Assembly: GCA_038215705.1 (NCBI GenBank)
Contig: JBBQQQ010000003.1
Coordinates: 69,575 to 133,574 of the forward strand
DNA length: 64,000 nucleotides
From: Bacteroidia bacterium
Lineage (GTDB): Bacteria; Bacteroidota; Bacteroidia; AKYH767-A; OLB10
Direction: 5' to 3'
Part shown: one piece after another, positions 25,218 through 64,000 of the stretch
How positions within the stretch are numbered: the stretch's first letter is position 1
Layout: each line of letters starts with the position of its first letter
Position numbers and translations under genes: made by a program
Notes under the pieces: model-generated
Databases searched by the model: none
What the model was told of the DNA's origin: nothing
Seen by the model: only the letters and a program-made list of their open reading frames with translations

Positions 25218-25241
25218 AAATCCTATCTGTTTGAGTGATTG

Positions 25242-25269
25242 GGAGGCCGGAGGGCCTCCCTTTTTTTTG
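25242..25269 (+). terminator. Rho-independent terminator
   Basis: GGGAGGCC-GGAG-GGCCTCCC stem followed by a T8 run. Confidence 0.8.
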
Positions 25270-25383
25270 AAATGACGGATGCAATAACAAGACTTTAAAA
25301 TTACCAATACCCCCATTCCACCTTAGCAAAGAAGGATTTTTTCATAAAAACTGACACCTTCTCATCAACCACCAAAAATAAAT

Positions 25384-25416
25384 AAACCCTGTAAAATTAA
25401 GGGTTTCCAAGGGTTG
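25384..25416. promoter_or_regulatory. Inverted repeat AAACCCT-N9-AGGGTTT plus extra half-site AAGGGTTG
   Basis: Same palindrome family as 19356-19379, located 233 nt upstream of the 25639 start. Confidence 0.4.
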
Positions 25417-25638
25417 AACTTCGAAAAATTACCAATCAGAAGCCCTTTTCAGGTAAAATATTACACAGGTGACCATAAATGAAACAATCATCCACGGAGG
25501 CTTTATGCGCGGAATATATTTGTCACCGTTGGCCTTCTAACAAGTAAGACAATTATATAACAATGTAAATAATTCAGTAAAAAACATATGCCTTAACCAG
25601 AATAAAAAAAACACTCAAACAAAAACTCAACAGATACA

Positions 25639-28600
25639 ATGAAAAACAATTTTACAGATCAGGTTTTAAAAAGTGTAAGCTCATTAAGCGCAACGTTCCA
25701 GTTCTGTTTGATGCTCGTATTGCTTATACTAATGGCAATCATCAATGCAGGTGCTCAAACTGTCAATCCAGTCAGGTACTGGACATTCAATGGAACAAGT
25801 GCTTCAACAGATTCCATGGGTCAGAACAATCTTAATTTTACCAGTTATGGAAGCCAGTATACGGTTGGTACAAACGGTCAGGTTGGAAAATTTCTTACCC
25901 TTGATGCCAATTCGAATCTTATTGATGGCGGATCGCTTAGCTTAACGAATGCGGTAACGGTAGAATTTTTATTAAAACCCGGCTACAAATTCAATACAAC
26001 TAATATCATGCAGCGTGCCGATGGCGCTTTCTCCATCAGGATCGAATATGCGACTTTAACATTCAGCACCACTCATAAAGCTGCAAATGGTGCAACCATT
26101 GAAGATAATTTTGCCATATCACTGGAAGGTCTTGGAAGGAAATCATACGGATACTATGTAGACAACAACTGGCATCACCTGGTGTTTCGTTTTGATGCAG
26201 CAACCGGATCCAAACAAGTATGGGTGGACGGTCAGCTTCCTGCAGGATTCAGCAAAACGATAACTGCAGGCTCATTCCAGAATAGTGGAAATATTAATTT
26301 CTATCTTAATCATTCAGTAAGCTACGTAAAATACTTTGGCAGCATTGATGAACTTGCAATTTATAATACCGCAATTCCTTCTAACCTTATTTACAAACAT
26401 TATCTCGGGGTTCAAACAGGACAACCTTATAACTTCGTAAATAATTATTCAGGAACTATTCCTCCTGCATCCTCAACAACCAGTCCGCTCGACCCAACTG
26501 AATTTGCACCGGGTCATCCGACAGTCAATGTTTCCGCAATTGAACAATTACAGAAGTATCCGCTACCACGTTACAAACCGGGAAACACCCTGATGAAAAA
26601 TTTCAACTGGATGGATCCTAAATTTATGGGAGGTTTATTGCAACCCGGTGTGACCAATCAACAGGCCGCCAATAACAGTGCAGTCATACAGACTGAACTT
26701 GCAAAAAATTTCAACTACTATTTCCAGGTAGGACTTGGCAATGGCATATTTGAAACAGCCTGGACCAACGCGGCAAATGCGAACCCCGACTTTAAGTTAT
26801 CGCTGATAATTTTTCGCGGACAATTAAATGGCAACAATAGTGAGCTCACTAATCAAAATAAAACTGCAGCACACTATCTGCAGAATTCAAGTGGGCAGTT
26901 TATCGATGCCAATGGCAATGTAACAACTTCCAAAATCTGGAGACCTACTGCTCCTACCTCATCATACAATGCCGATGGCAATGCCATATACACCATGCTA
27001 ACCGACATGTATTCGCGGTTAAACCGGAATGTGGATGTAGTTAATGAAAATGGTGAGGTCTTCCCACATCCATCCGAAACAGCAATGGCAATGGACCCTG
27101 CTGTGTTAGCTGCAAAGAATGCTTCAGGCCTCGACTGGAAATCGTTTCTGTCACGAAAATATAAAGAGAACGAAACACAATCGTACCGTGATATTATCAT
27201 GTCACACCCACGTATGAGTTCTGCTAAATTTACTGAATATGCGATTGACGGTTTCCCCGAGTACCGCATGAAATACAGCGAAGCGCGGTCGGTAAATTCT
27301 CAGATTAATGGTCAGTATTATCCGACGCCTGATTTCTATCCCCGATGGTCTAATAACTGGAGAAACTGGGTTTCTGCGTGGCATGGCTGGCAGTGGATCG
27401 TAGAATCGCGCGTGCATGAACTGGCTGCAGGAGACAGATTGTATTCTCCTTTCGTAGCTGCAGGATGGGATGCAGATGAAGAAAAAAATATACGCCCTGC
27501 ACAATGGTTAGGTTTGTTAAAATGCCTGGGCATGACCGGTGCTGAATTTTATTATCCCGGGTTCTTCTCACTGGCTGCTCCTTGGCCCGATTCTAAAAAC
27601 TGGATCTGGCAGGCTGCTATGCCACCTTATGCACAGGCAATAACCAGCAGGTATGAAGACCTAATTCGCAATGGAGAATTAATGTTAGGCGATGTTGGAA
27701 ACAGCTATGTAACTCCTACCGCTCCGGGCTATGCGTTTTGGACTGGTGACCTTAGAAAACTGGTAGTAGTGCGTAAACATAATACCGTTAGCAAATACGC
27801 TATCACTGGAACCATCCAGCCTAACAGCAGCATGACCGGCAATGCAGAAAATGAAAGTGTAGCTACAATCACACTTGATGGTCAGGTATTATCATTCAAA
27901 GTTAAAAGACAGGGCAGCACCTATATTTATGATAAATCAAATCCATCAGGAGCTATATTTTACCAGTTAGATGGATGGCATGAAAAATCGCATCCTTCAC
28001 ATTGGTCACATGATTTTAATCTGGAGGCTGAATTATTCGATAACACAAATACACAAGTTGCAATTAAAACTGCTGTGCCTGCCGGAACTGCAGCAGGTGA
28101 TTATACAAATTTTACCAGCTACCTTGCCTGGCCTGACGGGGTTACCAACCCACAGCCTGTTGAATACAACTTTGCACCACGGGGCAATTTTAACAGCAAT
28201 CTGTATGTATGGGTAAGAGCACGCAGCCGGGGTGGCGTTACTTCCAGCATGAATGTTCAACTGGATAACAATGCTGCAAAAACAATCGGCTGTATCAGTG
28301 ATACTGCATGGACCTGGTACCGGTATGATGCCTGTACACAACAGGAAATCCGCTTCCAGAATATCTCTATCCAAAATCATATAATTAAACTTACACCCGG
28401 CAATGATAAGCTGGAGATTGACAAAGTATTGCTTACAGCAGATGCTTCACTGCTCCTCAATTCCGCACCTCCGTCGTGTGGAGCAGCAACAGCAACCATT
28501 ACTCCTTCAGGTAACACAACTTTTTGCACAGGAGGAACAGTCACCCTTACTGCAAGCGCCGGGACTTCATATCAATGGACTCCTGGGGGTCAAACAACAC

Positions 28601-31368
28601 AGTCGATTGTTGTGAATGCTTCAGGTTCGTATAATGTAACAGTCGGTTCCGGTGCAGGTTGTGCAGCTATTGCAAATGCTGTCACAGTTTCTGTAGTTCA
28701 GGCACCCAGTGCACAAATAACAACAGGTGGATCTACAACACTTTGCCCTGGCGCTTCCGTTACCCTGACAGCTCCTTCGGGAATGTCGGGGTATCTTTGG
28801 ATGCCGGGCGGACAAACTACGCAATCGATCACCACTTCAACCGCTGGATTCTATACAGTAAGAGTTACTAATGCTGGCGGATGTTCTGCTACATCATCCC
28901 CGGTGAATGTTACAGTAGGTCAAACTCCAGTGGCAACAATCACAGCCGGAGGAACTACATCATTTTGCCAGGGTAGTAGTGTTACGCTTACCGCTTCAGC
29001 AGCCAACAGTTATTTATGGTTTCCCGGAGGACAAACAACTCAGTCGATAACGGCATCGTCTACAGGAAATTATACCGTGCGTGTAACTGGATCAGGGGGT
29101 TGTACTGCTATGTCAAATCCATCTACAGTTACAGTGTATGCGCTTCCAACAGCAACCATTTCCGCAAACGGGCCTACTTCTTTTTGCACAGGTGGCAACG
29201 TAACTCTTACTGCAGCTAATGCAACTTCCTACTTATGGTTACCGGGCGGACAAACTTCCCAGTCAATAAATGTAACATCCGCAGGATCGTATTCAGTACG
29301 TGTGACTAATAGCTCAGGATGTTCAGCAACATCAACAGCAACAAATGTAAATGTATCAGCATACCCGGTTGCAACCATCACACCCGCAGGATCTACTTCA
29401 TTGTGTGCAGGAAGTTCTGTCGGTTTATCAGCCAGCACAGGCACCGCTTATTTGTGGACTCCGGGCAACCAGACAACACAAACAATTTCAGCTACGACTG
29501 CAGGTGCATATACCGTTAGAGTAACTAATAGTGCCGGTTGTTCAACAACATCGCAGCCAACCAATATTACAGTCAATCCGGCTGTTAACGCAACTATCAG
29601 TGCCAATGGCCCTACAGCTATTTTACCCGGCGGTAGTGTAACACTTACAGGAGCGGGAGGCACTTCGTATGTATGGTCTCCGGGAGGACAAACCACTTCT
29701 TCTATAACTGTTAACACACCGGGTTTCTATAGTGTAACAGCTTATTCCGCGTCGGGATGTTCGGCAACATCCACTCCAACAGAAATTACCCTTGTAAATA
29801 TAAATACACCACCGGCAACAATTACCGCATCCAATAATTCAGGTATGTTGTGTCCTGGAAATTACATGACCTTAACAGCATCTGCAGGAAGTTCTTATTT
29901 ATGGACCCCAGGCGGACAAACCACGCAATCGATCAACATCAGTATTGCAGGATCGTACTCTGTAGATATCACCGACCTTACAGGTGTTACCATTTCATCA
30001 GCCACGTTTGATGTACTTTATAAGCCTGCACCCGACGCACCTGCAATCATGAGTGCATACATTCCTTCAGCATCCTTTCAGTTATCAGCATACGAGCCAA
30101 CAGCCCATTCGTATTTATGGTCGAACGGTGCTACAACCGATGCCATAACAGTGAACAATACCGGAACTTATACAGTGCGTGCAATAAATGGATTTGGTTG
30201 TAAGTCGGCACCGCAAACAATGACCGTGACTTCATTATCGTCACAGCATTGCGGAACACCAAACATGCTTTCTCACTATGGCATTACTAAAACAAGCGCT
30301 GTTGTTTCATGGAATCCCAGCGTAACTGCCGATTCATTTCGTGTTGAATACACACGGATATCAACTGCACAAAATTTCTCAGTGAATGTTGCGGGATCAC
30401 AAAGTAAGATAACTCTTTCCGGGCTTACGGAAGGTGAATTGTATAAATGGAATGTTGTTGCAATCTGCAGTGGCATTCAAACTGGAAGTGCCATAAAACA
30501 ATTCACCACATTAAACGGACCGTTACCTTGTGGCTCAACTCCTCAGAACTTATCGAATGATGTAGTCAACAGCACCATGGCAAAAGTTTCATGGTTTGAT
30601 ACACAGGCCGACAAATTTGTAATTCGCTACCGTGCAGTAGGAACACAAAATTATCTTTACAGGAGAGCTTTTAATTCACTAACTTCAGGGTTAATCGAAG
30701 GACTTACACCATCAACAAACTATGAGTGGAGTGTTCGCTCGGCATGTGCCGGAAATGTTAGTCTTTATTCAGCACCAAAATTCTTCACCACTCCTGCAGC
30801 ATGCCCCGCAATTGGTCCATTTGCCGTTAGTGAAATCACTTTTAACAAAGCACTTGTTTCCTGGACACCATCTACACTTGTTGACAGCGTTATGGTTAAA
30901 TGGGCAGTAAGTGGTACAACAGATTACAGGCATGTTAAAATAGCTGCTTCACCTGATCCGGGAGAATACTGGATACTGGGACTTGAACCTGAAACAACAT
31001 ATGATGTGTGGGTCGCTACAAAGTGTGATGCCGGAAGCACTTCCATGTGGGGTGCAGGTGATTCCTTCACTACCTTCACGGATCCCAATTTACGTTTTAC
31101 TCCTGAAGCAGGTGCCATTCATCTGAATGCGTATCCTAACCCAACAAAATTTGAACTTAGTTACGTGTTTGAATCAAAAGACGACAAACCGTACCTGGTA
31201 AAAGTATGTGATATGGCGGGCAGGGAATTACTTGCCGAAGAACGAATTGCAAACGAAGGAAAAACAGGAGACAAAGTTGATTTACCCGGATTCTCGGGAG
31301 GGTTGTATATGCTGATCATTCAAAAAGGAGGTCAGGTAGGACGATTCAAGTTCAATATTCATGAATAA
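25639..31368 (+). CDS. Very large T9SS-secreted paralog: LamG-like + uncharacterised module + about 10 Ig-like repeats + 3 FN3 + type-A CTD
   Basis: 1909 aa. The N-terminal 850 aa align co-linearly with the 19491 protein (for example YYVDNNWHH.VFRFDA, WHGWQW..ESR, RPAQWLG.LK...MTGAEF.YP). The C-terminal sorting domain reads LNAYPNPTKFELSY...GLYMLII. Confidence 0.85.
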   Translation: MKNNFTDQVLKSVSSLSATFQFCLMLVLLILMAIINAGAQTVNPVRYWTFNGTSASTDSMGQNNLNFTSYGSQYTVGTNGQVGKFLTLDANSNLIDGGSLSLTNAVTVEFLLKPGYKFNTTNIMQRADGAFSIRIEYATLTFSTTHKAANGATIEDNFAISLEGLGRKSYGYYVDNNWHHLVFRFDAATGSKQVWVDGQLPAGFSKTITAGSFQNSGNINFYLNHSVSYVKYFGSIDELAIYNTAIPSNLIYKHYLGVQTGQPYNFVNNYSGTIPPASSTTSPLDPTEFAPGHPTVNVSAIEQLQKYPLPRYKPGNTLMKNFNWMDPKFMGGLLQPGVTNQQAANNSAVIQTELAKNFNYYFQVGLGNGIFETAWTNAANANPDFKLSLIIFRGQLNGNNSELTNQNKTAAHYLQNSSGQFIDANGNVTTSKIWRPTAPTSSYNADGNAIYTMLTDMYSRLNRNVDVVNENGEVFPHPSETAMAMDPAVLAAKNASGLDWKSFLSRKYKENETQSYRDIIMSHPRMSSAKFTEYAIDGFPEYRMKYSEARSVNSQINGQYYPTPDFYPRWSNNWRNWVSAWHGWQWIVESRVHELAAGDRLYSPFVAAGWDADEEKNIRPAQWLGLLKCLGMTGAEFYYPGFFSLAAPWPDSKNWIWQAAMPPYAQAITSRYEDLIRNGELMLGDVGNSYVTPTAPGYAFWTGDLRKLVVVRKHNTVSKYAITGTIQPNSSMTGNAENESVATITLDGQVLSFKVKRQGSTYIYDKSNPSGAIFYQLDGWHEKSHPSHWSHDFNLEAELFDNTNTQVAIKTAVPAGTAAGDYTNFTSYLAWPDGVTNPQPVEYNFAPRGNFNSNLYVWVRARSRGGVTSSMNVQLDNNAAKTIGCISDTAWTWYRYDACTQQEIRFQNISIQNHIIKLTPGNDKLEIDKVLLTADASLLLNSAPPSCGAATATITPSGNTTFCTGGTVTLTASAGTSYQWTPGGQTTQSIVVNASGSYNVTVGSGAGCAAIANAVTVSVVQAPSAQITTGGSTTLCPGASVTLTAPSGMSGYLWMPGGQTTQSITTSTAGFYTVRVTNAGGCSATSSPVNVTVGQTPVATITAGGTTSFCQGSSVTLTASAANSYLWFPGGQTTQSITASSTGNYTVRVTGSGGCTAMSNPSTVTVYALPTATISANGPTSFCTGGNVTLTAANATSYLWLPGGQTSQSINVTSAGSYSVRVTNSSGCSATSTATNVNVSAYPVATITPAGSTSLCAGSSVGLSASTGTAYLWTPGNQTTQTISATTAGAYTVRVTNSAGCSTTSQPTNITVNPAVNATISANGPTAILPGGSVTLTGAGGTSYVWSPGGQTTSSITVNTPGFYSVTAYSASGCSATSTPTEITLVNINTPPATITASNNSGMLCPGNYMTLTASAGSSYLWTPGGQTTQSINISIAGSYSVDITDLTGVTISSATFDVLYKPAPDAPAIMSAYIPSASFQLSAYEPTAHSYLWSNGATTDAITVNNTGTYTVRAINGFGCKSAPQTMTVTSLSSQHCGTPNMLSHYGITKTSAVVSWNPSVTADSFRVEYTRISTAQNFSVNVAGSQSKITLSGLTEGELYKWNVVAICSGIQTGSAIKQFTTLNGPLPCGSTPQNLSNDVVNSTMAKVSWFDTQADKFVIRYRAVGTQNYLYRRAFNSLTSGLIEGLTPSTNYEWSVRSACAGNVSLYSAPKFFTTPAACPAIGPFAVSEITFNKALVSWTPSTLVDSVMVKWAVSGTTDYRHVKIAASPDPGEYWILGLEPETTYDVWVATKCDAGSTSMWGAGDSFTTFTDPNLRFTPEAGAIHLNAYPNPTKFELSYVFESKDDKPYLVKVCDMAGRELLAEERIANEGKTGDKVDLPGFSGGLYMLIIQKGGQVGRFKFNIHE

Positions 31369-36323: not shown

Positions 36324-38598
36324 ACTTTTCCTGACAATTTTACTGTTGCTGGTTTTACCTACTGTTATGCTTGCGCAGAAGACAGGGCTGGTATTAAGCG
36401 GAGGAGGTATTCGCGGAATGGCTCACATTGGCGTTTTGAAAGCCCTGGAAGAAAATGGAATACCCATTGATTATGTCACCGGAACTTCTGCCGGCGCTGT
36501 TGTAGGATCACTCTATTCAATAGGTTTATCTCCGGCAGAGATCGAATCGCTGGTAATGTCGAATGAATTCCGTGAATGGGCTACGGGGCAGATAAATGAA
36601 AACCTTGCCTATTACTACAACCAGGAAGAAGTCAACGCATCGTGGGTATCACTAAAATTCTCAATCGACTCAACGCTAAAAACGCATTTACCCAGCAGCG
36701 TGGTAAGTTCTGCACGATCCGATTTTGCGTTGATGCAGGATATGTCGGCAGCAATAGCAGCTGCAAAATATAATTTCGACAGTCTCTTTGTACCTTTTCG
36801 TTGTGTTGCTTCGGATATTAAATCCAAACGTCCCGTAATTTTCAAATCGGGTGATTTACCAATGGCAGTCAGGGCTTCTATGGCCTACCCGCTTTACTTC
36901 ACACCGGTTTCTTTTGATAATATGATACTTTTCGATGGAGGAATTTATAACAACTTCCCTGTTGATGTGATGTTAAACGACTTTAATCCGGATGTGATCA
37001 TAGGTGTGAATGCCGGGTCGTATGCTGATATTCCCTATGAGGAAAATCTCTTTTCGATGTTTAAAACCATGCTGGTTCAAACAACTACGTATTCGGTTCC
37101 GAGGGAAAATGACATTATGATAAATCCGGTTGTTACCAATATTGGCATTTTTGAATTTGATGATATGCGAGCTGCCATTGATTCAGGTTACCAGGCTACT
37201 ATGAGAAACATCGAAGATATCCGTAATAAAATCGGAACTCGTGTTTCACCTGCCTCCGTAAAAATCAAACGTGAAATCTTCCGTTCGCAGTTTCAGGATA
37301 TCATGATAGATAAAATTACTGCAACAGGAATTACTCACAACCAGGAACATTATGTTCGTAATATTCTCAATCGCGAAAATGAATGCCTTTCCATTGAACA
37401 AATAAAACCTGCATATTTCAAATTGCTGAGTGATAATAATATTAAATCCATATTTCCACGTCTAAAATACAACGATTCTACCGGCTATTACGATATGGAT
37501 CTGCTCATCAAGAAAGAAAAAGACCTGCGCGTTGACTTCGGAGGAAACATTTCATCTAACCCGATTAATGAAGCCTTTGTCGGATTGGATTATAATATCT
37601 GGGGAAAACATGCACTAAACTTAAACGGAAATATTTATTTTGGAAAACTATATAATTCGGTATCCATTAAATTACGCTATGATATTCCGGGAAAATTCAA
37701 GTACTATATTGAACCTGTTGCCATCATTAACCGTTTTGATTATTTTAAAAGCAGTTCCGCTTTCCTTGAGGATGTGAAGCCCGCTTACCTGATACAAACC
37801 GACCGGTTCTACGGTCTTAACCTGGGTATTCCTGCCGGAAACAAAGGAAAAGCATTTATTTCAGGAGGTTCCATTAACCTGATTAACCGGTATTATCAGA
37901 CACGGGATTTTTCAAGTGAAGATATTGCCGATGAAACTCAATTTTCGGGTTGGACCGGATCAATAAACTTTGAACGGAATACACTCAACCGGAAGATGTA
38001 TGCCACGAAAGGAACTTTCTTCAAAATAACAGGCAAAATTGTTTCCGGTGAAGAAAAAACCTCTCCCGGAACATCCGGAATATCTACAGATACCATAAAC
38101 AGTCTGCACGATTGGTTTCAACTCCGGATGATCTATCATAACAATTTTAAACGCGTAGGACCATTTACCTTTGGTTTGTATACCGACATGTTTCTTTCTT
38201 CGCAACCATTCTTCGCGAATTATACCGCCACAATTTTATCGGCACAGGCCTTTCAGCCCATTGCACACAGCAAAACCATATTCCTTGATAAATATAAAGC
38301 CAATAATTATATCGGAATGGGGTTGAACACAATCGTGACATTGGTAACTAATGTTGAACTTCGGGTAGAAGGCTATATTTTTCAGCCGTTCCAGGAAATC
38401 CTTCAGACTCCTGATCTAAAGCCAAAATATAAAAATGCTTTCGACTCACGTTCCGCAATAGCGTCCTTTGCGGGCATCTATCACAGCCCGGTTGGACCGG
38501 TTAGCCTTAGTTTAAACTATTATGAAAAACGCGACAACCAATTTTCGGTATTGTTTCATTTTGGTTATATCATTTTTAACAGGCGGGCGCTCGATTAA
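36313..38598 (+). CDS. Patatin-like phospholipase fused to C-terminal outer-membrane beta-barrel (Omp85-like)
   Basis: 761 aa. Signal peptide, patatin motifs GGGIRG, GTSAG and DGG, and a long beta-rich C-terminus ending in aromatic residues. Confidence 0.8.
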
Positions 38599-40421
38599 TT
38601 TTCAGGTTTATTAATTTTATAAAATTCAACTTCCATTTCTTTTATGCTGAATAGGGTTTTGTTTTTATTCCATACAAATATTTTAATACGGCTGTCAGCT
38701 TGAAAATCTGCTGGCACTGAAAATCCAAACTTTCTTTTTCTCCATTCATTAATTTCTTCTGAAGGCAGTTCATTAATTTTTTCACCATTCCAAAAAAGTG
38801 TATTCCCTGCGGAATCTTCTATAGTAAAAACTAAAAAGGTTCCATCGCACGCACCTGTTTCCTTTTCCTTTCTTGATAATTGAATTTTCACATAATAATC
38901 AGCATCTGATATCGCCTCAAAATTCAGGGATAACGCAGGCCCGTATTCAGTATCGGAATTAAACATTATTTCGCTAGCCTGATTAACGGAAAATGCAGAT
39001 GTCCACAAGGGTTCTGATGATGTATTTAAAAGTTTATACCGAAGTGCTGGTGTCTCTTCCAATTCAAAATATAATAATTCAGGTTTACCCCCAAGTACAT
39101 TCCTGAAATCCGATCCGGTTTGAAGAAAAACATACTTATACTTCTCAAAATTCATCGCATCAGGATGAATTATATTATACCTGTATTGATAAGTCTGGAT
39201 CAGGTTCAGCACTATACATAATATCAGAAATGTATAAATCCAAAATTTTACCAAGCGGTTCGTAATCGTCTGCACCATCAAGGCTACCGGGATAATAAAC
39301 ACTGCATAAAAATCAATATACGCACGCAATCCAAATCCATCTCCGAAATACCAGCTCCACCAGGAGGAAATTATATAAATACATATCAATAGAACACACG
39401 TGAATGAAATGCCCTCATATATACTTCTTTTAAAAAAAAAATAAATACCGGGAATTATCATCAGCATCACAGGAGTATAAACCAACCAGCCCTTCCGGAA
39501 ACTAAACAGTGATTGCAAAATATGCGGATTGGAAAAATTGAATCCCTCATTACCATAGGACCATACAAAATAACTACCGGTCTGTAATTTAAACAGACCC
39601 AACTGGACCGAAATCACAAGCACAAATAAAAGAAGGGAAACCAGGAATACCTGAGGCCTGAAAATTTTCACTAAGGCCTGTTTTAAATCGGGCCATGATC
39701 CTGCAAGAAATGGAATTGCAAAAACAATCATTAGATTCAAAGGCCTGATGATCGTAATTAATCCTAGAAATAGGGCAGCCAAATACAAATTCCGGATCGT
39801 GCTATTCAGGCAATACATTCGAATATGATATGCGAAAACACTTATGACAAAAAAAGAATATACATGAGCCATGGTACTGTGAACAGCTGTGTAATAAAAA
39901 AGGTTGGTACCTATAGCAATCCCGGCAATGATTAATGCAATTGTACTGTCTTGTATTTGATAGGAAGAAAGTAATTTCCTTAAATAATATAGGCCGGCCA
40001 ACAGATAAAATATTGCCGCTGCAATCAATGTGAACATGTACGGCCAGGAATAGCCCGACTGCATTTCACCTGTCAACCAGGCTATACCATGACCGGCAAC
40101 AAAAAATGGTGTTAACAGTACTGCGACGCCGCAATAATTTTTATTTACATACGAATCAACGGATGTCCTGACCTTAAACCGCGGATGATAATATCTTTTA
40201 ATTGCTGAATTTTCTGCCTGATCATAAAAATTAAAAGAAAGGTCATGATAAATAAATAGCGCAGGCAAATATGCATAATTTCCTTTACTGTCTCCATCAA
40301 CCGTGGCTTCCCACCCGTTACCGTCCTCCCCATTCCACCGGTGCATGTATGAAAAAAAAACAACGCAAGCTGCTACAACGAAAAAAGAAAAATGGGAGGA
40401 TTTTAAAAATGAGACATTCAT
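38595..40421 (-). CDS. Polytopic membrane protein, candidate GT-C-type glycosyltransferase (hypothetical)
   Basis: 608 aa, about 11 predicted TM helices, then an about 200-aa soluble C-terminal domain. Only 120 nt upstream of the GT2 polyprenyl-phosphate sugar transferase gene on the same strand. Confidence 0.55.
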
Positions 40422-55612: not shown

Positions 55613-55822
55613 ACGGTTAGATAAAAAATTTGTCACCAACACCATGAACATCCTGAGCATTGATTATTAACGAATTACCTCATTGTTAAATACAATTTTT
55701 TATTAGAAACGCACCACCTAAGGGCTAAATAACTAATTTGTTATCAACAAAATATCAAAATTTCTATTTAGTCGGAATATTTCTTAAATTTGATACTTGT
55801 TGAATTTCCAAATCTGAATCAA

Positions 55823-56890
55823 ATGAACCGGATGACTTTTAAATCTCAGATAAAGGGCCTTGCCGTCCTTTCTATTGTGCTATTTGGGTCGAATGTGAAT
55901 TCCCAGAATGTGGGGGTTGGAACAGCCACTCCGCTTGAAAAACTTCATGTGATCGGGAATATCAGGTCTTCCACCCTTTCGGGTTTGGGTAACAGAATGG
56001 TTTTGGCTGATCCGAATGGTACACTTTTAACCGCATCCGGACTTGGTTCGCCGGCATGGATGGTCACCGGAAATTCCGGCCTTTCGGGTGGAACAACTAC
56101 CACCACAGGAACCAATTTTATTGGAAATACCGATGCCCAGAATATTTGTTTCAGAACTAATAATATTGAACGTGGACGTTTCAGCGCACTGGGTGAATTT
56201 TTTGTAGGAACTTTCAATACTGTGATTCCAGGAGACCTCATGAATGCTGTTGGTAACCCGGTATTTCCATGGGCAGTGAATGGGTATGTTCCTGCAGGAT
56301 CTAACGGCGGTGGCGTATACGGACAAATACAATCGGGTAACGGAACAATTTTCGGAGCCGTACAGGGTGAATATTCCGGCACCAATGCCTCCGGCGCCGG
56401 TGTCAGGGGAATTGCAATTAACCCATTTTCAATCGGAGTACAGGGTCAAGAATCGACCTTGTTAGGATGGGCGGGTTATTTTAACGGGGATGTGTTTTCA
56501 ACAACCGGTTATTACATCCCTTCCGATGAACGGTTGAAGAAAGATGTGAATCCATTGAAGAATGCACTCGATCAGATTAAAGGCATTTCCATATATTCCT
56601 ATTATTATGATCAGGCAAAATATCCGAATCTCGGATTAAGCAATCGCTTGCAATACGGTGTACTCGCCAATGAACTGGCTGCTATATTACCTTCGGCAGT
56701 TGCAACTAAAAAACTTGTCGATGGTAATCCATCCAGGATGGCAGATACACGAGAAATTTCAGCGCTCGAAGTGCAGGTTGTGAACTATGAAATGCTCATT
56801 CCTTTACTTGTTGCAGGAATGAAGGAACAACAGGAACTAATTGAAGAGCTTAATCGGCGCATTACTACACTTGAAACACAATCTAAATAG
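55823..56890 (+). CDS. Tail-fiber-like secreted protein with C-terminal peptidase S74 intramolecular chaperone domain
   Basis: Signal peptide, conserved N-terminal module (QNVGVGTATPLEKLHVIGN..), a Gly-rich beta-repeat region, and a C-terminal SDERLKKDV...coiled coil typical of the auto-cleaving chaperone domain of phage tail spikes. The ORF opens at 55790. Confidence 0.7.
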   Translation: MNRMTFKSQIKGLAVLSIVLFGSNVNSQNVGVGTATPLEKLHVIGNIRSSTLSGLGNRMVLADPNGTLLTASGLGSPAWMVTGNSGLSGGTTTTTGTNFIGNTDAQNICFRTNNIERGRFSALGEFFVGTFNTVIPGDLMNAVGNPVFPWAVNGYVPAGSNGGGVYGQIQSGNGTIFGAVQGEYSGTNASGAGVRGIAINPFSIGVQGQESTLLGWAGYFNGDVFSTTGYYIPSDERLKKDVNPLKNALDQIKGISIYSYYYDQAKYPNLGLSNRLQYGVLANELAAILPSAVATKKLVDGNPSRMADTREISALEVQVVNYEMLIPLLVAGMKEQQELIEELNRRITTLETQSK

Positions 56891-56922
56891 TTTTATTTTT
56901 ATTTCTAACTTAATATTTCTCA

Positions 56923-58584
56923 ATGAAAAATTTTTACTGCATCAGTTTATTGCTTCTCGTTTTAAATTGCTTTACAGGACAACAGACCATCGCACAGAAT
57001 GTGGGTATTGGTACGGCCACTCCTCTTGAAAAATTACACATTATCGGTAATGTCCGTTCATCAACACTTGCAGGTATCGGAAACCGTTTAGTCCTCTCTG
57101 ATCCGAATGGAACATTGATAAATGCTACCGGACTCACTTCCCCTGCCTGGTTAATTACAGGTAATTCCGGAACCGTGGCCACAACGAATTTCATAGGAAC
57201 CATCGATTCAGTTGCTTTCATTATGCGCACCTTTAATATAGAAAGAATGTGGATACTTTCCAACGGACAAGTTTCGGTAAACAATGCCACTCCTTTTGCC
57301 ACAGCTGTGTTTTCATCCTATGCTGCAGGTGGTTTTGATGCAGTCACCGGAGCAGCTACAGGTACGGGTGACGGAGTTTACGGACAAAATACAAGTACCG
57401 GAGCAACACCCGGTAATGGCGTTACCGGAATTTCAACTACCGCCACAGGTTTTGGAGTGGGTGCTTATAATATTAATACAAGCGGAACTGCAGTACTGGG
57501 AGTAGGCAATGGTGTGGCAGGTAATTATGCAGTGGCCGGATCCGGAGCGGCCTTCACAGGTTCCCGCATTGGTACGTATTCGCTTTCATTAAATACTTCA
57601 GGCAACGTATCCAGTACCGGAATTATCGGAAGGGATGCCGGTGGAACTTTCACTATGCTCAACGGCGGCGCAGGGGTTACAGGTTCAGCTGCTAATTCAG
57701 GTGTAGGTGTTTTCGCCTACAATACCGGAGTTACTAATCTGAGCCATGGCGTGTATTCCTCTATTGCATCCACAACTGCTGCAGCAGTACTTGGAATTGG
57801 CGGAAATTCAGGAGTGCAGGGTCAGACTACTGTCGCATCCGGTATTGGAACAAGCGGTTTTGGAGGTGCAAATGGTGACGGGGTTTATGGAACTGCCCCC
57901 GGTAATCTTGGATTCGGCGTAACAGGATTTGTTACCAACGGAACATCCGCCATCGGAGTGTATGGATATGCCGATGCAAACGGTCCAACACGCTTTGGTG
58001 GTTTCTTCGATAATGATCTTGGTTCGAGTGGTGTGAAAACTTTTATGATTGATCATCCGCTGGATCCTTCTAATAAAATTCTTAAACATTTTTCAATGGA
58101 ATCACCTGAGGTACTTAACGTGTATCGCGGTAATGTGGTTTTAAATGGTGCCGGCGAAGCCATTGTGACGCTTCCTGATTATTTTGAATCGGTCAACAAC
58201 ACCAATTACAGCTATCACATAACTCCCATCGGTGCCCCTGCGCAGCTGTATGTTAAACAGGAAATAGCTAATAAGGAATTTATAATTGCAGGTGGAACCA
58301 ACGGGATGAAAGTGTCGTGGATCGTATATGCCGAAAGAAATGATCCTTACCTCCAGCAAAATCCGGAAGAACGTGAAGTGATTATAAATAAAACCGGAAC
58401 TGAAGCAGGAAAGTATATCAGTCCTGTATTGTACGGTCAGCCTAAGGAAAATGGATTGTACTATAAAAATCAGCAAGGTGCCAAAGTAACTCCGCAACCA
58501 ACAACAACAGAAAAAACAACAGAACAAACGGAGCAAAAAAAACCTGCGGATTTCACTCCGGTAGATACGTTCGATTCAAATTAA
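56923..58584 (+). CDS. Tail-fiber-like secreted paralog (no S74 domain; distinct IDHPLDP C-terminal module)
   Basis: 553 aa. The N-terminal 90 aa are about 70 percent identical to the 55823 protein. A long Gly/Thr-rich repeat region is followed by a C-terminal FMIDHPLDPSNKILKH..domain and an acidic tail. Confidence 0.7.
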   Translation: MKNFYCISLLLLVLNCFTGQQTIAQNVGIGTATPLEKLHIIGNVRSSTLAGIGNRLVLSDPNGTLINATGLTSPAWLITGNSGTVATTNFIGTIDSVAFIMRTFNIERMWILSNGQVSVNNATPFATAVFSSYAAGGFDAVTGAATGTGDGVYGQNTSTGATPGNGVTGISTTATGFGVGAYNINTSGTAVLGVGNGVAGNYAVAGSGAAFTGSRIGTYSLSLNTSGNVSSTGIIGRDAGGTFTMLNGGAGVTGSAANSGVGVFAYNTGVTNLSHGVYSSIASTTAAAVLGIGGNSGVQGQTTVASGIGTSGFGGANGDGVYGTAPGNLGFGVTGFVTNGTSAIGVYGYADANGPTRFGGFFDNDLGSSGVKTFMIDHPLDPSNKILKHFSMESPEVLNVYRGNVVLNGAGEAIVTLPDYFESVNNTNYSYHITPIGAPAQLYVKQEIANKEFIIAGGTNGMKVSWIVYAERNDPYLQQNPEEREVIINKTGTEAGKYISPVLYGQPKENGLYYKNQQGAKVTPQPTTTEKTTEQTEQKKPADFTPVDTFDSN

Positions 58585-58600
58585 TTAAATTCTGATCATC

Positions 58601-61600
58601 ATGCGTATACTTTTAATAAAAATGAAACTATCACTTCTCACTATAGCGGTGTGCCTGTTTGTTTCTGGTGACATCCTTGCCCAATGCATGTCCTATCATG
58701 TTCCCCTTCATCAGAAGGTCATGAATTCATCGGTTATAATTGAAGGAAAAATTATCAGTAAGAGCTCTTTCTGGAATCCAGCATCTGATTTCATATATAC
58801 CAGCAACGTTATAGAGGTTTATAAAGTATTTAAAGGTGGCATAACTGCATCACAGGTTGAAATAATTACTGAAGGCGGCACTATAGGTAATTCGATGATT
58901 GTTGCTGAACCGTCACTGCAACTGAATGTTAATGATATTGGTGTCTTTTTCATGATTCCTGCCGGGCAACTCAATCCATCATCGCCACGACCTGCCGCTT
59001 TACAGTTTGAAGGATATGCATCCAACCAGTCACTCGTCCGGTATGATATGAAATCGCTGGAGGCAATTGAACCGTTTACTGTTTACACTGATATTACCAC
59101 CGATATTTATCAGTATATCACAACGACTCTGAACCAGAATTACTCCGAAATAATTCCTTTCAACGTATTTCAGCCATCGAATTCAGGTCCTTCAGGAAAT
59201 CCGGTTCCAATGGCATTTCCGACCATAACAAGTATTACATCACCTTCTACAGCTGGAACTTTTTCATTGGTAACAGTAAATGGAAACAATTTCGGGGCCG
59301 GCCCTTATGGCGGATCACGTGCTTTGGAATTCCGGGATGCCAACAATGGAGGCGCAGGCTTTATTCCCACTCCTGCAAATCACATTATTTCATGGACGAA
59401 TACTTCAATCCAGGCATGGGTACCTACACAAGCTGGCAGCGGTAACATCAGGGTCACAAATGATCTGGGTGAATCCACCATTTCAGCAGTAACAATCACT
59501 ATTAATTATAATGAATCAAATGTGAACTCGGGTGGTGTTTATTATCAGCCTGATCTTATCAATGATAACGGTATTGGCGGATATAACTTTGTTTACAATA
59601 CAACCTTTAACGGCAATGCCGCAGCAGTTGCATCCTTTGAAAGAGCGCTTCAGACCTGGCGTTGTGGAACGTTTGTCAACTTTAATAAAACCGGTACCAC
59701 CCCCACTTCCTGCCAGGCACTTGATGGAACCAATCTTGTTACATTTGACGGTGCCTGTGCACTTCCTGCAGGAGTTCTTGGCGTTTCTTACAGTTATTAC
59801 AGTGCCTGTGGATTTGGCATATGGTACCTGAATGAAAACGATTTAAAATTCCGTACCAACGGAACGGGGGGCATTAACTGGAATTACGGCCCTGCTCCCA
59901 CTGCAGGAGGCCTTTTTGATTTTGAATCCGTCTCATTGCATGAATTAGGACACAGTCACCAACTGGGACATACCATCGTCCCGGTAACGGTAATGAATTA
60001 CGCGGTTGCTCCCAATACGGACCGGCGCACGCTTACACCTGTGAGTGAAACTGCAGGAGGTAATGACATCATGTCACGAAGTGTGGTAAATAACAGTTGT
60101 GCTCCTACTGCAATGGTGGCATTAAATGCATCAAATTGTTCCATCAATGCACCTATCGCCAATTTCACAGGAACACCTCTTTCTGGCTGCAATAGTTTAA
60201 CAGTAACATTCACTGACCAGAGTACCGGTACACCAACCAGCTGGAACTGGAGTTTTCCCGGAGGCGTACCGGCTGCTTTCGCAGGACAAAATCCACCTCC
60301 GGTTCTTTATGGCGCACCGGGTAATTATACAGTCACGCTTTCGGTTTCAAACGCATCCGGTAACGATACCGAAACTAAAACAAACTATGTTGTTGTAAAT
60401 AATTGTCCACCTCCCGTTGCCGATTTTTCAGGAACACCACAAAGTGTATGTACCGGTCAACAGGTTTATTTTGTAGATCTGTCAACAAACAGTCCTACGA
60501 GCTGGTCATGGACATTTCCCGGGGGAGCACCAGGCGCCTCTTCAGCACAAAATCCTGCAGTTTTTTATGCTGCACCGGGTGTATATGATGTTACATTAAC
60601 AGCAACCAATCCTTATGGATCAGGTTCTGTTACCAAAATAGGTTACATTACAGTGGGAAATTGCCCGGTACCTCCTGTCGCAAATTTCTCAGGATCTCCC
60701 ACTACATTATGCGCCGGCGGAACAGTTTCCTTTACGGACCTGTCGGCAAACAGTCCAAATTCCTGGCAGTGGACATTTCCGGGAGGAACTCCTGCAACTT
60801 CAATCGGGCAGAATCCGGTAGTAACGTATAACACCGCAGGCACATACGCTGTTACATTAATAGCAAGCAATGGTGCCGGGTCGAACACTGCAACCTTTTC
60901 AGGATACATAACCGTAAACGTATGTGCTCCACCGGTAGTTGCTTTTACAGGATGGCCTACCACAGTCTGCACCGGAAGTTCCGTTTCATTTGCTGATCAG
61001 TCAACAAACTCTCCTTCATCATGGGCATGGACGTTCCCGGGAGGCACACCGGCGGCATCTGCTGTACAGAACCCTGTAATCACATATAATGTTGCCGGAA
61101 ACTACAACGTTACATTGCAGGCAACCAACTCCTTTGGAAACAATTCACTTACCAAAACAACTTATATTACCGTAGCAACCTGTCCTGCATTTGGCTCGGG
61201 ACTCATTGTTAATGACGGCTCCCTCATTCACGTTGAACCAAACGCGCTTGTAACAATCCAGGGTGGTTTAATCAACCGCGATAATACAGCAGCTAACATC
61301 GGGCGTGTTGATAACTGGGGATTGATAACTCTAACAGGCGACTGGACCAACAACAGTTCATTGAATGCATTCATTAACTCGAGTCCCGGTACTACTGAAT
61401 TAATGGGAGCTGCACAAACCATTACGGGGAGTACTACTACAAACTTTTACAATCTTTCTTTAACAGGATCGGGGATAAAAACACTTACCATAAATACTGT
61501 TGCAGAGGGCACACTGGCACTCAACGACCGTGAGCTTGCAACGCAGGGCAACTGGATGCACGTGACCAATGCTGCGCCAACGGCAATTACACGAACAGGA

Positions 61601-62680
61601 GGATTAACTTCAACCCCAGTTCAGGGATTCATTAGCAGCACCGGTACAGGCAGGGTTCGATGGAATACCAATACCACCAGTACTTATATTTTCCCACTGG
61701 GATCAAGTATAGGCAATCCGCGTTTCCGTCCTATAGGTTTAAAACCTACCAATACTTCACTGAATACCTTTGCAGCACGTTTTGTAAATAATGATCCAAC
61801 AATTGATGGATATCCAATTACTGTTAAAGATGCAAACATCGGCAACATCAATCCTTACTGGTATCAAAAAATAAACAGTCTGACCGGCACAACCGATCCG
61901 GATGTCACATTATATTTTGACAATATTGCCGATAACATTGCACCACTACCTACACTCATTATGGCGCAATGGGCCTGGAATGCTCCTCCCGTCCAGTGGA
62001 GAGCAATTTCCGGTGTTATCATTGGCGGAGCCGCATCTCCCACGCTCTCCAGTGTTACAAAAGCTGCATGGATTTCATTTGACACTGAAAATTTCAACCT
62101 TGCACCCGAATCCACTCCGTTACCTGTTGAATTAATCAGCTTTACCGGAATGTGTAAACCCGGAGGTATTATTGTAAAATGGATAACTGCTTCAGAAACC
62201 AATAACGATTATTTCAAACTTGAAGCAAGCAGTGATGGAATCAACTTCAATGAAGTATCGATCCGTAAAGGAGCAGGAACGAAAAGTACCTCTACGGAAT
62301 ATACAGTTTTTGATACCTCTGCTGATACGTACAAAGCGAAATATTACAGATTGAAACAATTTGATTTTGACGGATCTGAAAATGAGTCGAAAATAATTCT
62401 GGTTGACTGTTCAAGGCAATCTGCTTCTTCCACCGAAATTTCAATTTTCCCCAATCCTACTTATAACGATTTAAATGTGCTGATCAACCAGACGTTTTCC
62501 GGCAAAACTAAAATCAGCATTGTAAATGTTTTAGGTCAGATTGTTTTTTCAAACGAATATTCTCTTGAATCCGGCCTTCAGCAAATCAAATTAAATCTGG
62601 GTGAATTTGCTCCTGATCTGTACCAGGTGGTAATTGAAAGTGATGATTACCGGAAAGTCTGGAAGATTGTGAAGGAATAG
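58601..62680 (+). CDS. Large T9SS-secreted protein: IPT/TIG + metzincin-like Zn-peptidase motif + 4 PKD domains + beta-rich region + type-A CTD
   Basis: 1359 aa with a signal peptide. HELGHSHQLGH (HExxHxxxxxH) is preceded by a matrixin-like FERALQTW segment. Four PKD repeats (..TFTDQSTG.PTSW.W.FPGG..). C-terminal sorting domain ISIFPNPTYNDLNV...DLYQVVI. Confidence 0.8.
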   Translation: MRILLIKMKLSLLTIAVCLFVSGDILAQCMSYHVPLHQKVMNSSVIIEGKIISKSSFWNPASDFIYTSNVIEVYKVFKGGITASQVEIITEGGTIGNSMIVAEPSLQLNVNDIGVFFMIPAGQLNPSSPRPAALQFEGYASNQSLVRYDMKSLEAIEPFTVYTDITTDIYQYITTTLNQNYSEIIPFNVFQPSNSGPSGNPVPMAFPTITSITSPSTAGTFSLVTVNGNNFGAGPYGGSRALEFRDANNGGAGFIPTPANHIISWTNTSIQAWVPTQAGSGNIRVTNDLGESTISAVTITINYNESNVNSGGVYYQPDLINDNGIGGYNFVYNTTFNGNAAAVASFERALQTWRCGTFVNFNKTGTTPTSCQALDGTNLVTFDGACALPAGVLGVSYSYYSACGFGIWYLNENDLKFRTNGTGGINWNYGPAPTAGGLFDFESVSLHELGHSHQLGHTIVPVTVMNYAVAPNTDRRTLTPVSETAGGNDIMSRSVVNNSCAPTAMVALNASNCSINAPIANFTGTPLSGCNSLTVTFTDQSTGTPTSWNWSFPGGVPAAFAGQNPPPVLYGAPGNYTVTLSVSNASGNDTETKTNYVVVNNCPPPVADFSGTPQSVCTGQQVYFVDLSTNSPTSWSWTFPGGAPGASSAQNPAVFYAAPGVYDVTLTATNPYGSGSVTKIGYITVGNCPVPPVANFSGSPTTLCAGGTVSFTDLSANSPNSWQWTFPGGTPATSIGQNPVVTYNTAGTYAVTLIASNGAGSNTATFSGYITVNVCAPPVVAFTGWPTTVCTGSSVSFADQSTNSPSSWAWTFPGGTPAASAVQNPVITYNVAGNYNVTLQATNSFGNNSLTKTTYITVATCPAFGSGLIVNDGSLIHVEPNALVTIQGGLINRDNTAANIGRVDNWGLITLTGDWTNNSSLNAFINSSPGTTELMGAAQTITGSTTTNFYNLSLTGSGIKTLTINTVAEGTLALNDRELATQGNWMHVTNAAPTAITRTGGLTSTPVQGFISSTGTGRVRWNTNTTSTYIFPLGSSIGNPRFRPIGLKPTNTSLNTFAARFVNNDPTIDGYPITVKDANIGNINPYWYQKINSLTGTTDPDVTLYFDNIADNIAPLPTLIMAQWAWNAPPVQWRAISGVIIGGAASPTLSSVTKAAWISFDTENFNLAPESTPLPVELISFTGMCKPGGIIVKWITASETNNDYFKLEASSDGINFNEVSIRKGAGTKSTSTEYTVFDTSADTYKAKYYRLKQFDFDGSENESKIILVDCSRQSASSTEISIFPNPTYNDLNVLINQTFSGKTKISIVNVLGQIVFSNEYSLESGLQQIKLNLGEFAPDLYQVVIESDDYRKVWKIVKE

Positions 62681-62835: not shown

Positions 62836-63100
62836 CACTCCGTCACTCGTCTCTCCGAGCCGGGCAAGCTTGTCACTTGTCACTTGTCACTTGTCACTTG
62901 TCACTTGTCACTTGTCACTTGTCACTTGTCACTTGTCACTTGTCACTTGTTACCCGTCTCTCCGAGCCGGGCAGGCTTGTCACTTGTCACTTGTCACTTG
63001 TCACTTGTCACTTGTCACTTGTCACTTGTCACCCGTCTCCCCGAGCCGGGCAGGCTTGTCACTCGCCACCCGCCACTCGCCACTCGCCACTCGTCACTTT
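62836..63100. repeat. Composite heptanucleotide tandem-repeat array: 3 x core CCCGTCTCTCCGAGCCGGGCAGGCTTG each followed by (TCACTTG)n
   Basis: About 30 CACTTGT units, with CACTCGC variants at the end, read directly from the sequence. Ends in CTTTATGATGC. Confidence 0.9.
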
Positions 63101-63195: not shown

Positions 63196-64000
63196 TTATC
63201 TTCGAATAACCTCAAACTTTTTATAAATGAGGCCTTTTTCTGTTTTGATAGCCAGGAAATAAAAACCCTGGGAAAATGATGTGGTAGCAATTTTGATTGC
63301 TGAACCCTTATTTTCGGAAGTGGCGACGAGCAGTCCTATATGATTATATATTTCATAACCTGTAATATCAGCTACTCCGGAACGTACGAACAATTGTTCA
63401 TTGGCAGGATTAGGATAAACTGAAATAGAATTTTCTATCTCTGCCAGTTCATTGATTCCAACAGAAGCTGCTGTGTCAATCACAATAGAATCAATTTCCG
63501 TATTGATCAATAATTGATATTCTGATGCAGTGATTGCTTTAATGTCACTCAGCACAATTGGCATGGTAACTTTGGCACCGACATTGTCGACAATCACAAT
63601 TCCTAACCGTGCAAGAAAACCGAAACCGCTTAAATTCTGCTGATCATTTCTTACAAGTGCCATGTCAATTTTACCCTGTGACATAAGATCTTTATGGAAA
63701 GCAATCAGGTCGACCTGTGCATCACCTAACCAGCAACCGGTGTAATCAACATCGAGATAATTGGATGCTATAAGGCTGGTATCGATGTTGACCGTAAACG
63801 CAATACCATAAATACTGTCAACAGGTAATGCAGAAGTACCCAAGAAAATATCTATTTCGCAGGTGTCGCTCAGGTAAGCAGTATCGGGGTTAGCAACAAG
63901 ATATAATACGGGTGCGGGTAATTGGCTGGTTACAGGATTTGATAATCGTGGTGCATGGAAAAATCCATAGTTTAAAGAGACTGCTGTTGTATCATCAGCG
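63196..64000 (-). CDS. T9SS type-A CTD-containing secreted protein (partial, N-terminus beyond window edge)
   Basis: C-terminal SVYPNPANEQLFV...GFYFLAIK sorting domain. My manual translation of the frame shows it stays open from 63843 to 64000, so the ORF-track Met (a TTG) is internal. Confidence 0.65.
   Translation of the reverse strand, partial: ADDTTAVSLNYGFFHAPRLSNPVTSQLPAPVLYLVANPDTAYLSDTCEIDIFLGTSALPVDSIYGIAFTVNIDTSLIASNYLDVDYTGCWLGDAQVDLIAFHKDLMSQGKIDMALVRNDQQNLSGFGFLARLGIVIVDNVGAKVTMPIVLSDIKAITASEYQLLINTEIDSIVIDTAASVGINELAEIENSISVYPNPANEQLFVRSGVADITGYEIYNHIGLLVATSENKGSAIKIATTSFSQGFYFLAIKTEKGLIYKKFEVIRR

Follow-up and report, generated by a model that had tools for sequence, protein, structure and literature searches.

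A stretch of 64,000 nucleotides of contig JBBQQQ010000003.1 from a Bacteroidia bacterium was analysed, and this whole stretch is called the window below. It contains three consecutive genes on the plus strand, which are referred to as A, B and C. A and B encode proteins that resemble phage tail fibres and have predicted signal peptides, and C encodes a cargo protein of the type IX secretion system (T9SS). The analysis suggests that A and B are probably chromosomal fibres resembling the mosaic adhesive trimers (MATs) of Bdellovibrio bacteriovorus, placed in an operon with C and acting together with it at the cell surface. The two proteins are best read as adhesin-type fibres that serve the bacterium itself. 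This kind of system is already known, its Bacteroidota members are already present in a published supplementary table, and the assignment of an S74 chaperone to A is solid but ordinary. The link to T9SS, which appears in the gene trio and in the coupling of fibre genes to a domain of C named C_postI, looks new.

Organization of the A-B-C locus

The initial annotation described a pair of tail-fibre-like proteins at 55823-58584 beside a tRNA-tuf cluster, and open reading frames (ORFs) of 355 and 553 amino acids (aa) lie exactly there. A starts just downstream of a minus-strand block composed of tRNA-Thr/Tyr/Gly/Thr, tuf, tRNA-Trp, secE, nusG, rplKAJL, and rpoBC. The gap between A and B is 32 bp, and the gap between B and C is 16 bp. 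Co-transcription of the three genes as one operon is inferred from these gaps and from the fact that three different chromosomal contexts retain the trio. The features of the three genes are as follows.

55823-56890, plus strand: gene A, ATG start at 55823, 355 aa (ORF coordinates)
55823..55903, plus strand: signal peptide of A, residues 1-27; predicted cleavage between VNS and QNVG, exposing Gln28
55904..56212, plus strand: shaft repeat unit of A, residues 28-130; single copy that opens with the capping loop NVGVGTATPLEKLH
56213..56521, plus strand: Gly-rich distal shaft or tip of A, residues 131-233; 21% Gly; the C-terminal part of the mature fibre if A is autocleaved
56522..56890, plus strand: predicted S74 intramolecular chaperone/autoprotease of A, residues 234-355 and stop; supported by PF13884, fold and invariant motif
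56923-58584, plus strand: gene B, 553 aa (ORF coordinates)
56923..56994, plus strand: signal peptide of B, residues 1-24; predicted cleavage between TIA and QNVG
56995..57282, plus strand: shaft repeat unit of B, residues 25-120; capping loop NVGIGTATPLEKLH
57283..58017, plus strand: Gly-rich shaft of B, residues 121-365; 24% Gly, eight GxGVxG motifs
58018..58467, plus strand: beta-rich tip of B, residues 366-515; conserved, with the motif IDHPLDPxNKxLKHFSxESPE...YRG
58468..58584, plus strand: Thr/Gln/Lys/Pro-rich tail of B, residues 516-553 and stop; probably disordered, with a predicted local distance difference test (pLDDT) below 50 and no conservation in the alignment
58601..62680, plus strand: gene C, T9SS cargo protein, 1359 aa; third gene of the conserved module
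59939..59971, plus strand: metzincin zinc motif HELGHSHQLGH of C, residues 447-457, followed by a VMNY Met-turn candidate
61211..62110, plus strand: C_postI domain of C, residues 871-1170; recurs beside fibre genes in other Bacteroidota
62411..62677, plus strand: T9SS type A C-terminal sorting domain of C (PF18962, E 5e-9; TIGR04183)

Protein A and its S74 chaperone

In A, the signal peptide is followed by a single shaft unit, a distal segment rich in Gly, and the chaperone. Pfam Peptidase_S74 (PF13884) matches A at residues 234-293 with an E value of 1.4e-13 and 51.3 bits against a cut-off of 22. The significance of this hidden Markov model had been named beforehand as a test of the S74 auto-chaperone claimed for the first protein, and the claim held. 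The SDxRxK motif noted earlier was also confirmed as S234-D-E-R-L-K239 (SDERLK), and none of its residues S234, D235 and K239 varies among 48 aligned homologues. Of the 111 S74 ORFs from related loci, 110 have SDxxxK. S234 is the predicted cleavage and nucleophile residue of A, and K239 is the predicted base.

The C-terminus of A matches 24 PHROG families, 21 of which are tail proteins, mostly tail fibres. At the sequence level, it resembles the long tail fibre of phage S16 (6f45) and the intramolecular chaperone auto-processing (ICA) domain of MyRF (7dc3). In the AlphaFold2 monomer model, block-mean pLDDT of residues 232-355 is mostly ~65-93 and falls below 50 at 302-311. Foldseek returned MyRF ICA 7dc3 as the best match of the S74 part (A residues 224-352; E 1e-6, TM-score 0.77), and endosialidase endoNF 3gw6, GA-1 3gud, and T5 pb1 4uw8 were also matched. 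After cleavage, only 206 residues per chain (28-233) would remain, which would make mature A a very short fibre. Between A and its orthologue in locus L001, the mature part is 76-80% identical (residues 131-233: 76%) and the S74 part is 42% identical.

The signal peptides of A and B were judged by eye from the sequence, by a charged n-region and a hydrophobic core. The initial annotation had assigned a signal peptide to both proteins, and this agrees with the residues that follow. Q28 of A is invariant in 48 homologues, and Q25 of B is at least 90% conserved in 54 homologues. The conserved Gln at position +1 after the predicted cleavage site in A and B fits the Q-rule of Bacteroidetes (PMC5837995). 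Lipoprotein processing of B at Cys16 was considered and rejected. B has no lipobox and Cys16 is not conserved in the 54 homologues, so processing by signal peptidase I is more likely than lipoprotein processing.

Protein B and its tip

Searched as a whole, protein B matches nothing in Pfam (Peptidase_S74 included), NCBIfam or, by sequence, the PDB. Conservation across 54 homologues is highest in its C-terminal 150 residues. When B is compared with its L001 orthologue, the shaft is variable (32% identity) and the tip is conserved (65%). The AlphaFold2 model of the tip (370-510) has block-mean pLDDT mostly of ~75-94, with a single dip to ~61. The tip matches phrog_17490 (E 3e-10) and is 37% identical to gp19, a minor tail protein of Arthrobacter phages Sonali and Mufasa8. 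The model of the tip matches the fibres of phages Mufasa8 and P-SSM2 in BFVD, and the model of whole B resembles phage fibres and tailspikes. This conserved, beta-rich tip resembling those of phage fibres is the likely ligand-binding end of B.

The Gly-rich shafts described in the initial annotation are present in both proteins, with 21% Gly in A 131-233 and 24% in B 121-365, and their periodicity is weak. Structure prediction for a trimeric beta-helix had been proposed as a check. The AlphaFold2 monomer models reached usable confidence only for S74 and for the B tip. The shafts of both proteins and the shared module described below have pLDDT below 50 and are unreliable in these models.

The shared module as a shaft repeat

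A and B are 55% identical across 114 residues directly after their signal peptides (E 2e-34). The initial annotation read this as a conserved N-terminal module; the sharing stands, and the special N-terminal character does not. Iterative profile searches against all ORFs of the fetched loci showed that the module is a repeat unit of ~95-100 aa, which occurs in tandem in longer relatives, often with the unit at its full length. Five to six consecutive copies are present in L093, and about ten in L041 and L083. The module is thus a generic ~95-aa shaft repeat and not a special anchor domain. It contains the capping-loop motif VGIGTxxPxxxL, which is VGVGTATPLEKL in A (30-41) and VGIGTATPLEKL in B (27-38). 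Mature A opens with QNVGVGTATPLEKLH and mature B with QNVGIGTATPLEKLH. A profile of the A family aligns A residues 21-91 with the crystal construct of Bdellovibrio Bd2133 (PDB 8OND) at E 9e-4.

Relation to mosaic adhesive trimers

The MAT superfamily of B. bacteriovorus is composed of 21 secreted phage-tail-fibre homologues, 13 of them terminated by an autoproteolytic S74 domain containing SDxxxK and the remaining eight by tips of another kind (Caulton et al. 2024, PMC10769870). All MATs have a beta-rich domain, conserved and ~130 aa long, after the signal peptide, and their shafts carry a capping loop, for example NVGIGTAAPTSALH and LVGINTAAPLQKLH in Supplementary Fig. 18 (PMC10769870). Table S3 of the same study lists MATs of 417-854 aa from the FCB group (Bacteroidota), in Kordia algicida, Dokdonia pacifica, a Saprospiraceae bacterium, Salinivirga, and Patiriisocius (PMC10769870).

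By their sequences, A fits as the S74-class member and B as a non-S74-class member of a MAT-like family. As in Bdellovibrio, both proteins have a signal peptide and the VGIGTxxPxxxL shaft loop, the S74 and non-S74 classes occur in one genome, and phage-fibre homologues appear to be encoded by the cell for its own use. There are also four differences. A and B have 355 and 553 aa, whereas Bdellovibrio MATs have ~1,000. Mature A and B open directly with the capping-loop repeat, which may or may not correspond to the ~130-aa N-terminal domain of Bdellovibrio MATs. The host of A and B is not known as a predator. Finally, the genes of A and B are tied to a T9SS cargo gene, and no such link is reported for Bdellovibrio. 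Bdellovibrio is not known to have a T9SS.

Relatives are widespread. Among the candidates scored, 224 relatives of A and 1,479 of B were found, in metagenome-assembled genomes (MAGs) of Bacteroidia, Flavobacteriales, Chitinophagales and others. Many of them add collagen repeats or PF26696 "PTL_trimer", and others add DUF642 or sorting domains. A scan of one genome per species found relatives across Bacteroidota and a few in Desulfobacterota, Ignavibacteriae, and Planctomycetes. Cultivable carriers include Kordia, Flavobacterium sp. LHD-85 (L074), Hymenobacter ginsengisoli (L051, where the partner gene is present too), Bizionia algoritergicola (L025), Hanstruepera ponticola (L013), Portibacter lacus (L058) and Rurimicrobium arvi (L061). 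The earlier suggestion of a domesticated fibre was right in part. A and B are paralogous, fibre-like proteins with secretion signals, probably of an adhesin type. They are not an odd local domestication, as they belong to a very large and for the most part unannotated Bacteroidota family related to the published MATs.

Conservation of the gene trio

From its N-terminus, C comprises a stretch that matches nothing, a metzincin-like segment, four PKD domains, a further ~400 residues with no match, and a Por_Secre_tail domain. The Matrixin match in C is below the Pfam cut-off (E 0.0015, 18.8 bits against 24). HELGHSHQLGH is found in seven C orthologues and HELGHSIQLGH in L030, so that HELGHSxQLGH with VM(N/H)(Y/W) is present in 8/8.

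The initial annotation stated that a T9SS metalloprotease follows the two fibre genes. C does start 16 bp after B; it does not merely follow, since A, B and C form a conserved module. A C orthologue stands directly after fibre genes in L001, L002, L003, L017, L084, L086, and L088. In the first context, tuf/tRNA genes are followed by A-B-C (the window, L001, and L084/85). In the second, a glycosyltransferase gene is followed by A-B'-C and then by rpsF-rpsR-rplI (L086 and L088). In the third, YitT is followed by B''-A-C and then by MatE (L002). L003 and L017 are further cases of the trio. The second fibre gene varies, and B' and B'' do not have the tip of B; the S74 fibre and C are constant. That three contexts retain the trio, with the S74 fibre and C constant, speaks for a functional unit rather than the remains of a prophage.

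Phage genes were searched for in the window ORFs of at least 150 aa, except three at 12199-14558. No capsid, portal, terminase, sheath, tube, baseplate, or integrase gene was found among them, in agreement with the earlier statement that no other phage genes are nearby. No virion or tail structural genes or integrase were found around the orthologous loci either. The guanine-cytosine content of the A and B genes is 0.36-0.51 and similar to that of the surroundings, and the synteny of the trio is stable between lineages at 55-62% protein identity. This normal composition and stable synteny make A and B look like long-resident chromosomal genes and not like a recent phage acquisition. It is thus very improbable that A and B are a remnant of a prophage or tailocin, or a recent domestication. 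That explanation would account for the closest annotated relatives of the S74 domain and the B tip, which are phage tail fibres and minor tail proteins. However, the identities to phage proteins are 25-37% and are confined to the C-terminal domains, the trio is kept between housekeeping genes, and, unlike phage fibres, A and B start with Sec signal peptides followed by the Q-rule Gln.

Two observations were made at the orthologous loci. In L084 (16105-19182), genes for PorP/SprF, for an OmpA/PD40 protein and for a CHU_C protein with SprB repeats come after the trio, and the window has none of these downstream of C. In L001 (591-4432, ENA contig), the rpoB call is broken into nine short pieces, probably as a result of assembly frameshifts, and the adjoining fibre genes are intact.

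The C_postI domain and its link to fibre genes

C_postI (C residues 871-1170) has no Pfam, NCBIfam or PDB match. A word-indexed search gave just 17 proteins, and the size of the family was visible only in an exhaustive search, which gave 824 clusters at 50% identity. In most of the matches listed, C_postI stands directly after the signal peptide, and an internal position as in C is the minority arrangement. In a sample of 70 members, 60 have a T9SS sorting domain (44 of type B and 16 of type A), with PKD, Ig or SprB repeats in between. By this domain order, C_postI is recognizable as the head of many T9SS surface proteins. Its conserved motifs, seen in the window (61211-62110) and in P0258-P0402, are DWxN, FxNLTLxGTGxK, LNDREL, GFVSS, and YxFPxGS...RYRP.

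The relation between C_postI and fibre genes was followed in 80 loci gathered purely by the similarity of their S74 domains to that of A, with a cut-off of E <0.02 for the C_postI profile. Only C residues 871-1170 were used for this partner analysis. A longer query (871-1270) was dropped; its last 100 residues are a generic region before the sorting domain, and it gave false partners in L045 and L072. The 80 loci contain 13 C_postI ORFs. For eleven of them a fibre gene is no more than 150 bp away, and overlaps of 3-24 bp are frequent; for the other two the distance is 0.5 and 1.1 kb. As a background, such proximity is seen for 17% of all ORFs in the 80 loci that have 200 aa or more and are not fibre genes (binomial p 1.8e-7). 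The partners are typically ~370-600 aa long and consist of a signal peptide, C_postI and a sorting domain; those in L019, L021 and L026 are larger (689-1009 aa). In a search from the partner side, a fibre gene was adjacent in two of three informative loci. P0255 lies between two S74 fibre genes, P0257 lies directly after a fibre gene, and P0256 has no fibre neighbour; P0242 was uninformative. Proximity to T9SS cargo genes in general was not accepted as evidence, given how frequent these genes are here. In a Chitinophagales MAG (L091, 4151-8976), an S74 fibre gene, a gene for C_postI with a type B sorting domain, and a gene for a PTL_trimer+S74 fibre follow one another. The partner gene is flanked by two fibre genes, a mirror image of the fibre-fibre-partner order of the window.

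The partners also bear on the role of the C metzincin. The tight gene order and the conserved HELGHSxQLGH motif of the C orthologues would agree with a protease system in which A and B serve this enzyme as substrates, inhibitors or maturation factors. However, distant partners keep only C_postI and the sorting domain and have no protease, so the conserved link is to C_postI and not to the metzincin. A role of this kind for A and B has very little probability.

The main alternative is that A and B are envelope-internal or vesicle-borne fibres without a physical link to C, and that their adjacency reflects only the co-regulation of genes for surface functions. The fibres would then remain periplasmic or be carried off in outer-membrane vesicles. 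In favour of this reading, neither protein has a sorting domain or an anchor for the outer membrane, and some Bdellovibrio MATs have been found in a deposited vesicle (PMC10769870). The abundance of T9SS cargo genes raises the chance of adjacency by accident, and the C_postI gene of L090 has no fibre neighbour. Against this, the adjacency of C_postI is strongly non-random, the genes are often translationally coupled by their overlaps, the trio moves as a unit between chromosomal contexts, and some relatives fuse S74 fibres with T9SS sorting domains. Fibres of this internal or vesicle-borne kind are therefore considered rather unlikely.

Fusions of S74 fibres with T9SS sorting domains

In L052, L061, L038, L045, L068 and L080, an S74 domain, a coiled-coil segment and a T9SS sorting domain follow one another in one protein. 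The fusions in L052 and L061 were confirmed with Pfam. These fusions point to fibres of this kind being able to serve as T9SS cargo. In a Saprospiraceae MAG, locus L052 (55-10657) encodes seven tandem paralogues of 375-412 aa, each with a short fibre, S74, a coiled coil and a type A sorting domain. The usual S74 cleavage would cut the fibre of these proteins off the T9SS-anchored part. In Rurimicrobium arvi, locus L061 (8852-10630) encodes DUF642, S74 and a T9SS sorting domain in one protein, which by its domains would be a carbohydrate-binding-like head on an S74 fibre exported by T9SS. A C_postI neighbour is present in 0/6 of the fusion loci, as an either/or pattern would have it, though a sample of six is too small to judge.

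Release of the fibre by autocleavage in such fusions, together with the very small size of mature A, would be consistent with A and B being soluble effectors set free by the cell, such as lectin-like proteins, bacteriocin-like proteins or anti-phage decoys. However, no toxin, lysin or pore-forming domain was found in A and B (Pfam, NCBIfam, PHROG), and the operon has no immunity-like small gene. Effectors or decoys in an arms race would be expected to have a diversifying tip, and in the comparison with L001 it is the mature part of A that is conserved and the chaperone that has diverged. Release as soluble effectors is thus improbable. The bacteriocin-like or contact-dependent role mentioned in the initial annotation is not supported, as there is no toxin domain in the two proteins and no sheath, tube or baseplate gene among the ORFs scanned.

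Comparison with other known systems

Phage fibres and tailspikes (K1F endosialidase 3GW6, T5 pb1 4UW8, GA-1 gp12 3GUD, and S16 6F45) share with A the S74 fold, the Ser-Lys motif, and the position of S74 at the extreme C-terminus behind a beta-rich shaft. In contrast, A has a signal peptide with the Q-rule Gln and lies in a chromosomal housekeeping setting with no virion or baseplate context, and its identity to them is ~30-36%, over the chaperone alone. MyRF ICA (7DC3) is the best structural match of A, and in both proteins a capping loop lies upstream of S74. However, MyRF is a membrane-bound transcription factor whose cleavage frees a DNA-binding domain, and its biology is unrelated to A. 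B resembles the heads of trimeric autotransporter adhesins such as YadA, UspA1 and AtaA; this resemblance lies in a low-confidence region of the B model and is weak evidence, and B has neither the C-terminal membrane beta-barrel nor type Vc secretion.

C and the C_postI partners share the architecture of the T9SS surface adhesins of Bacteroidota of the SprB and RemA type, with a head, PKD, Ig or SprB repeats, and a sorting domain of type A or B. In addition, some relatives of A are themselves T9SS cargo. In contrast to these adhesins, A and B have no sorting domain, and the C_postI head is not a described family. No published account of a fibre-fibre-T9SS-protease operon, of a coupling of C_postI to S74, or of S74-sorting-domain fusions was found in the searchable literature. 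Searches for Peptidase_S74 in Bacteroidetes, PF26696, PTL_trimer, and S74 with type IX secretion gave nothing relevant. A Flavobacterium paper on a "tail fiber domain-containing protein" was set aside, as it concerns programmed inversions and not the family of A and B.

Proposed mechanism

A and B would be exported by Sec, and signal peptidase I would cut before the conserved Gln. In the periplasm, three A chains may be aligned by the C-terminal S74 chaperone, as in endosialidase, T5 pb1, MyRF, and Bd3182. Once the A trimer is folded, S234 and K239 would cut the chain as in the homologues, at S234 or ahead of it, which would free a chaperone of 122 residues and leave the fibre 28-233. B may trimerise without cleavage and bind a ligand with its tip. 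C would be a metzincin/PKD protein that is exported by T9SS and anchored at the surface. The genome context suggests that C may carry or dock the fibres through C_postI. In such an arrangement, attachment to a target surface would come from the fibres and protease activity from C.

A more tentative proposal is that C_postI serves as a dedicated carrier or docking domain for MAT-like fibres that have no sorting domain, either by hitch-hiking through T9SS or by holding the fibres at the surface. Lineages in which a sorting domain is fused behind S74 would then need no partner. If true, this would reveal what holds MAT fibres at the surface and would add a novel route of export by T9SS.

Several points weigh against a surface fibre that acts together with C. 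Neither A nor B has a T9SS sorting domain of type A (PF18962/TIGR04183) or type B (PF13585/TIGR04131), or another outer-membrane signal recognisable with Pfam and NCBIfam, so their surface exposure is only inferred. A is far shorter than the Bdellovibrio MATs, and the monomer models of the A and B shafts are unreliable, with pLDDT below 50. In two of the three contexts the second fibre has no B tip, so the exact pair is not fixed. T9SS cargo is abundant in the window, and only adjacency specific to C_postI is informative; one C_postI gene (L090) has no fibre neighbour. Hitch-hiking of cargo is not an established T9SS mechanism and has no known precedent.

Neighbouring genes and other features of the window

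Of the other window ORFs with 150 aa or more, 23 were scanned; 20 of these show a housekeeping Pfam match or none, and the remainder are T9SS cargo. Counting C and a 215-aa protein encoded beyond it, the 64-kb window contains six proteins with a type A sorting domain and one of type B (CHU_C). A cluster of T9SS cargo genes at 18508-31368 encodes a 191-aa CHU_C protein, a 1533-aa protein with PKD and a type A sorting domain, a 300-aa protein with fn3 and a sorting domain, and a 1909-aa protein with fn3/Ig/PKD and a sorting domain. On the minus strand, a response-regulator receiver fused to a PglZ domain (517 aa) is encoded at 10568-12121, and two ORFs at 38595-40421 (608 aa) and 2638-3300 (220 aa) have no Pfam match at E 0.001 or better.

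The repeat element noted earlier at 62836 is a heptanucleotide microsatellite, CTTGTCA, with ~23 copies at 62869-63099, inside a 79-bp higher-order repeat of 2.6 copies. It sits between C and the convergent gene of the 215-aa T9SS protein (63196-63843, minus strand). Artefactual "LSLVTCH" repeat ORFs arise from this microsatellite.

A promoter candidate was read from the sequence upstream of A and is given as a lead.

55785..55792, plus strand: TAAATTTG, possible Bacteroidota -7 promoter element, 31 nt upstream of the A start codon

It matches the consensus TAnnTTTG. A scan for E. coli-type promoters and terminators, which is ill-suited to Bacteroidota, gave matches no commoner than in shuffled sequence.

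Significance of the fibre genes

Phage-tail-fibre-like fibres used by bacteria have so far been studied only in the predator Bdellovibrio. The present locus suggests that minimal MAT-like fibres are ordinary conserved chromosomal genes in free-living Bacteroidota. The C_postI family, with ~800 clusters at 50% identity, is a candidate for the missing export or anchor partner of MAT fibres. If the link to C_postI is true, two large sets of unannotated Bacteroidota proteins would be joined in one surface system.

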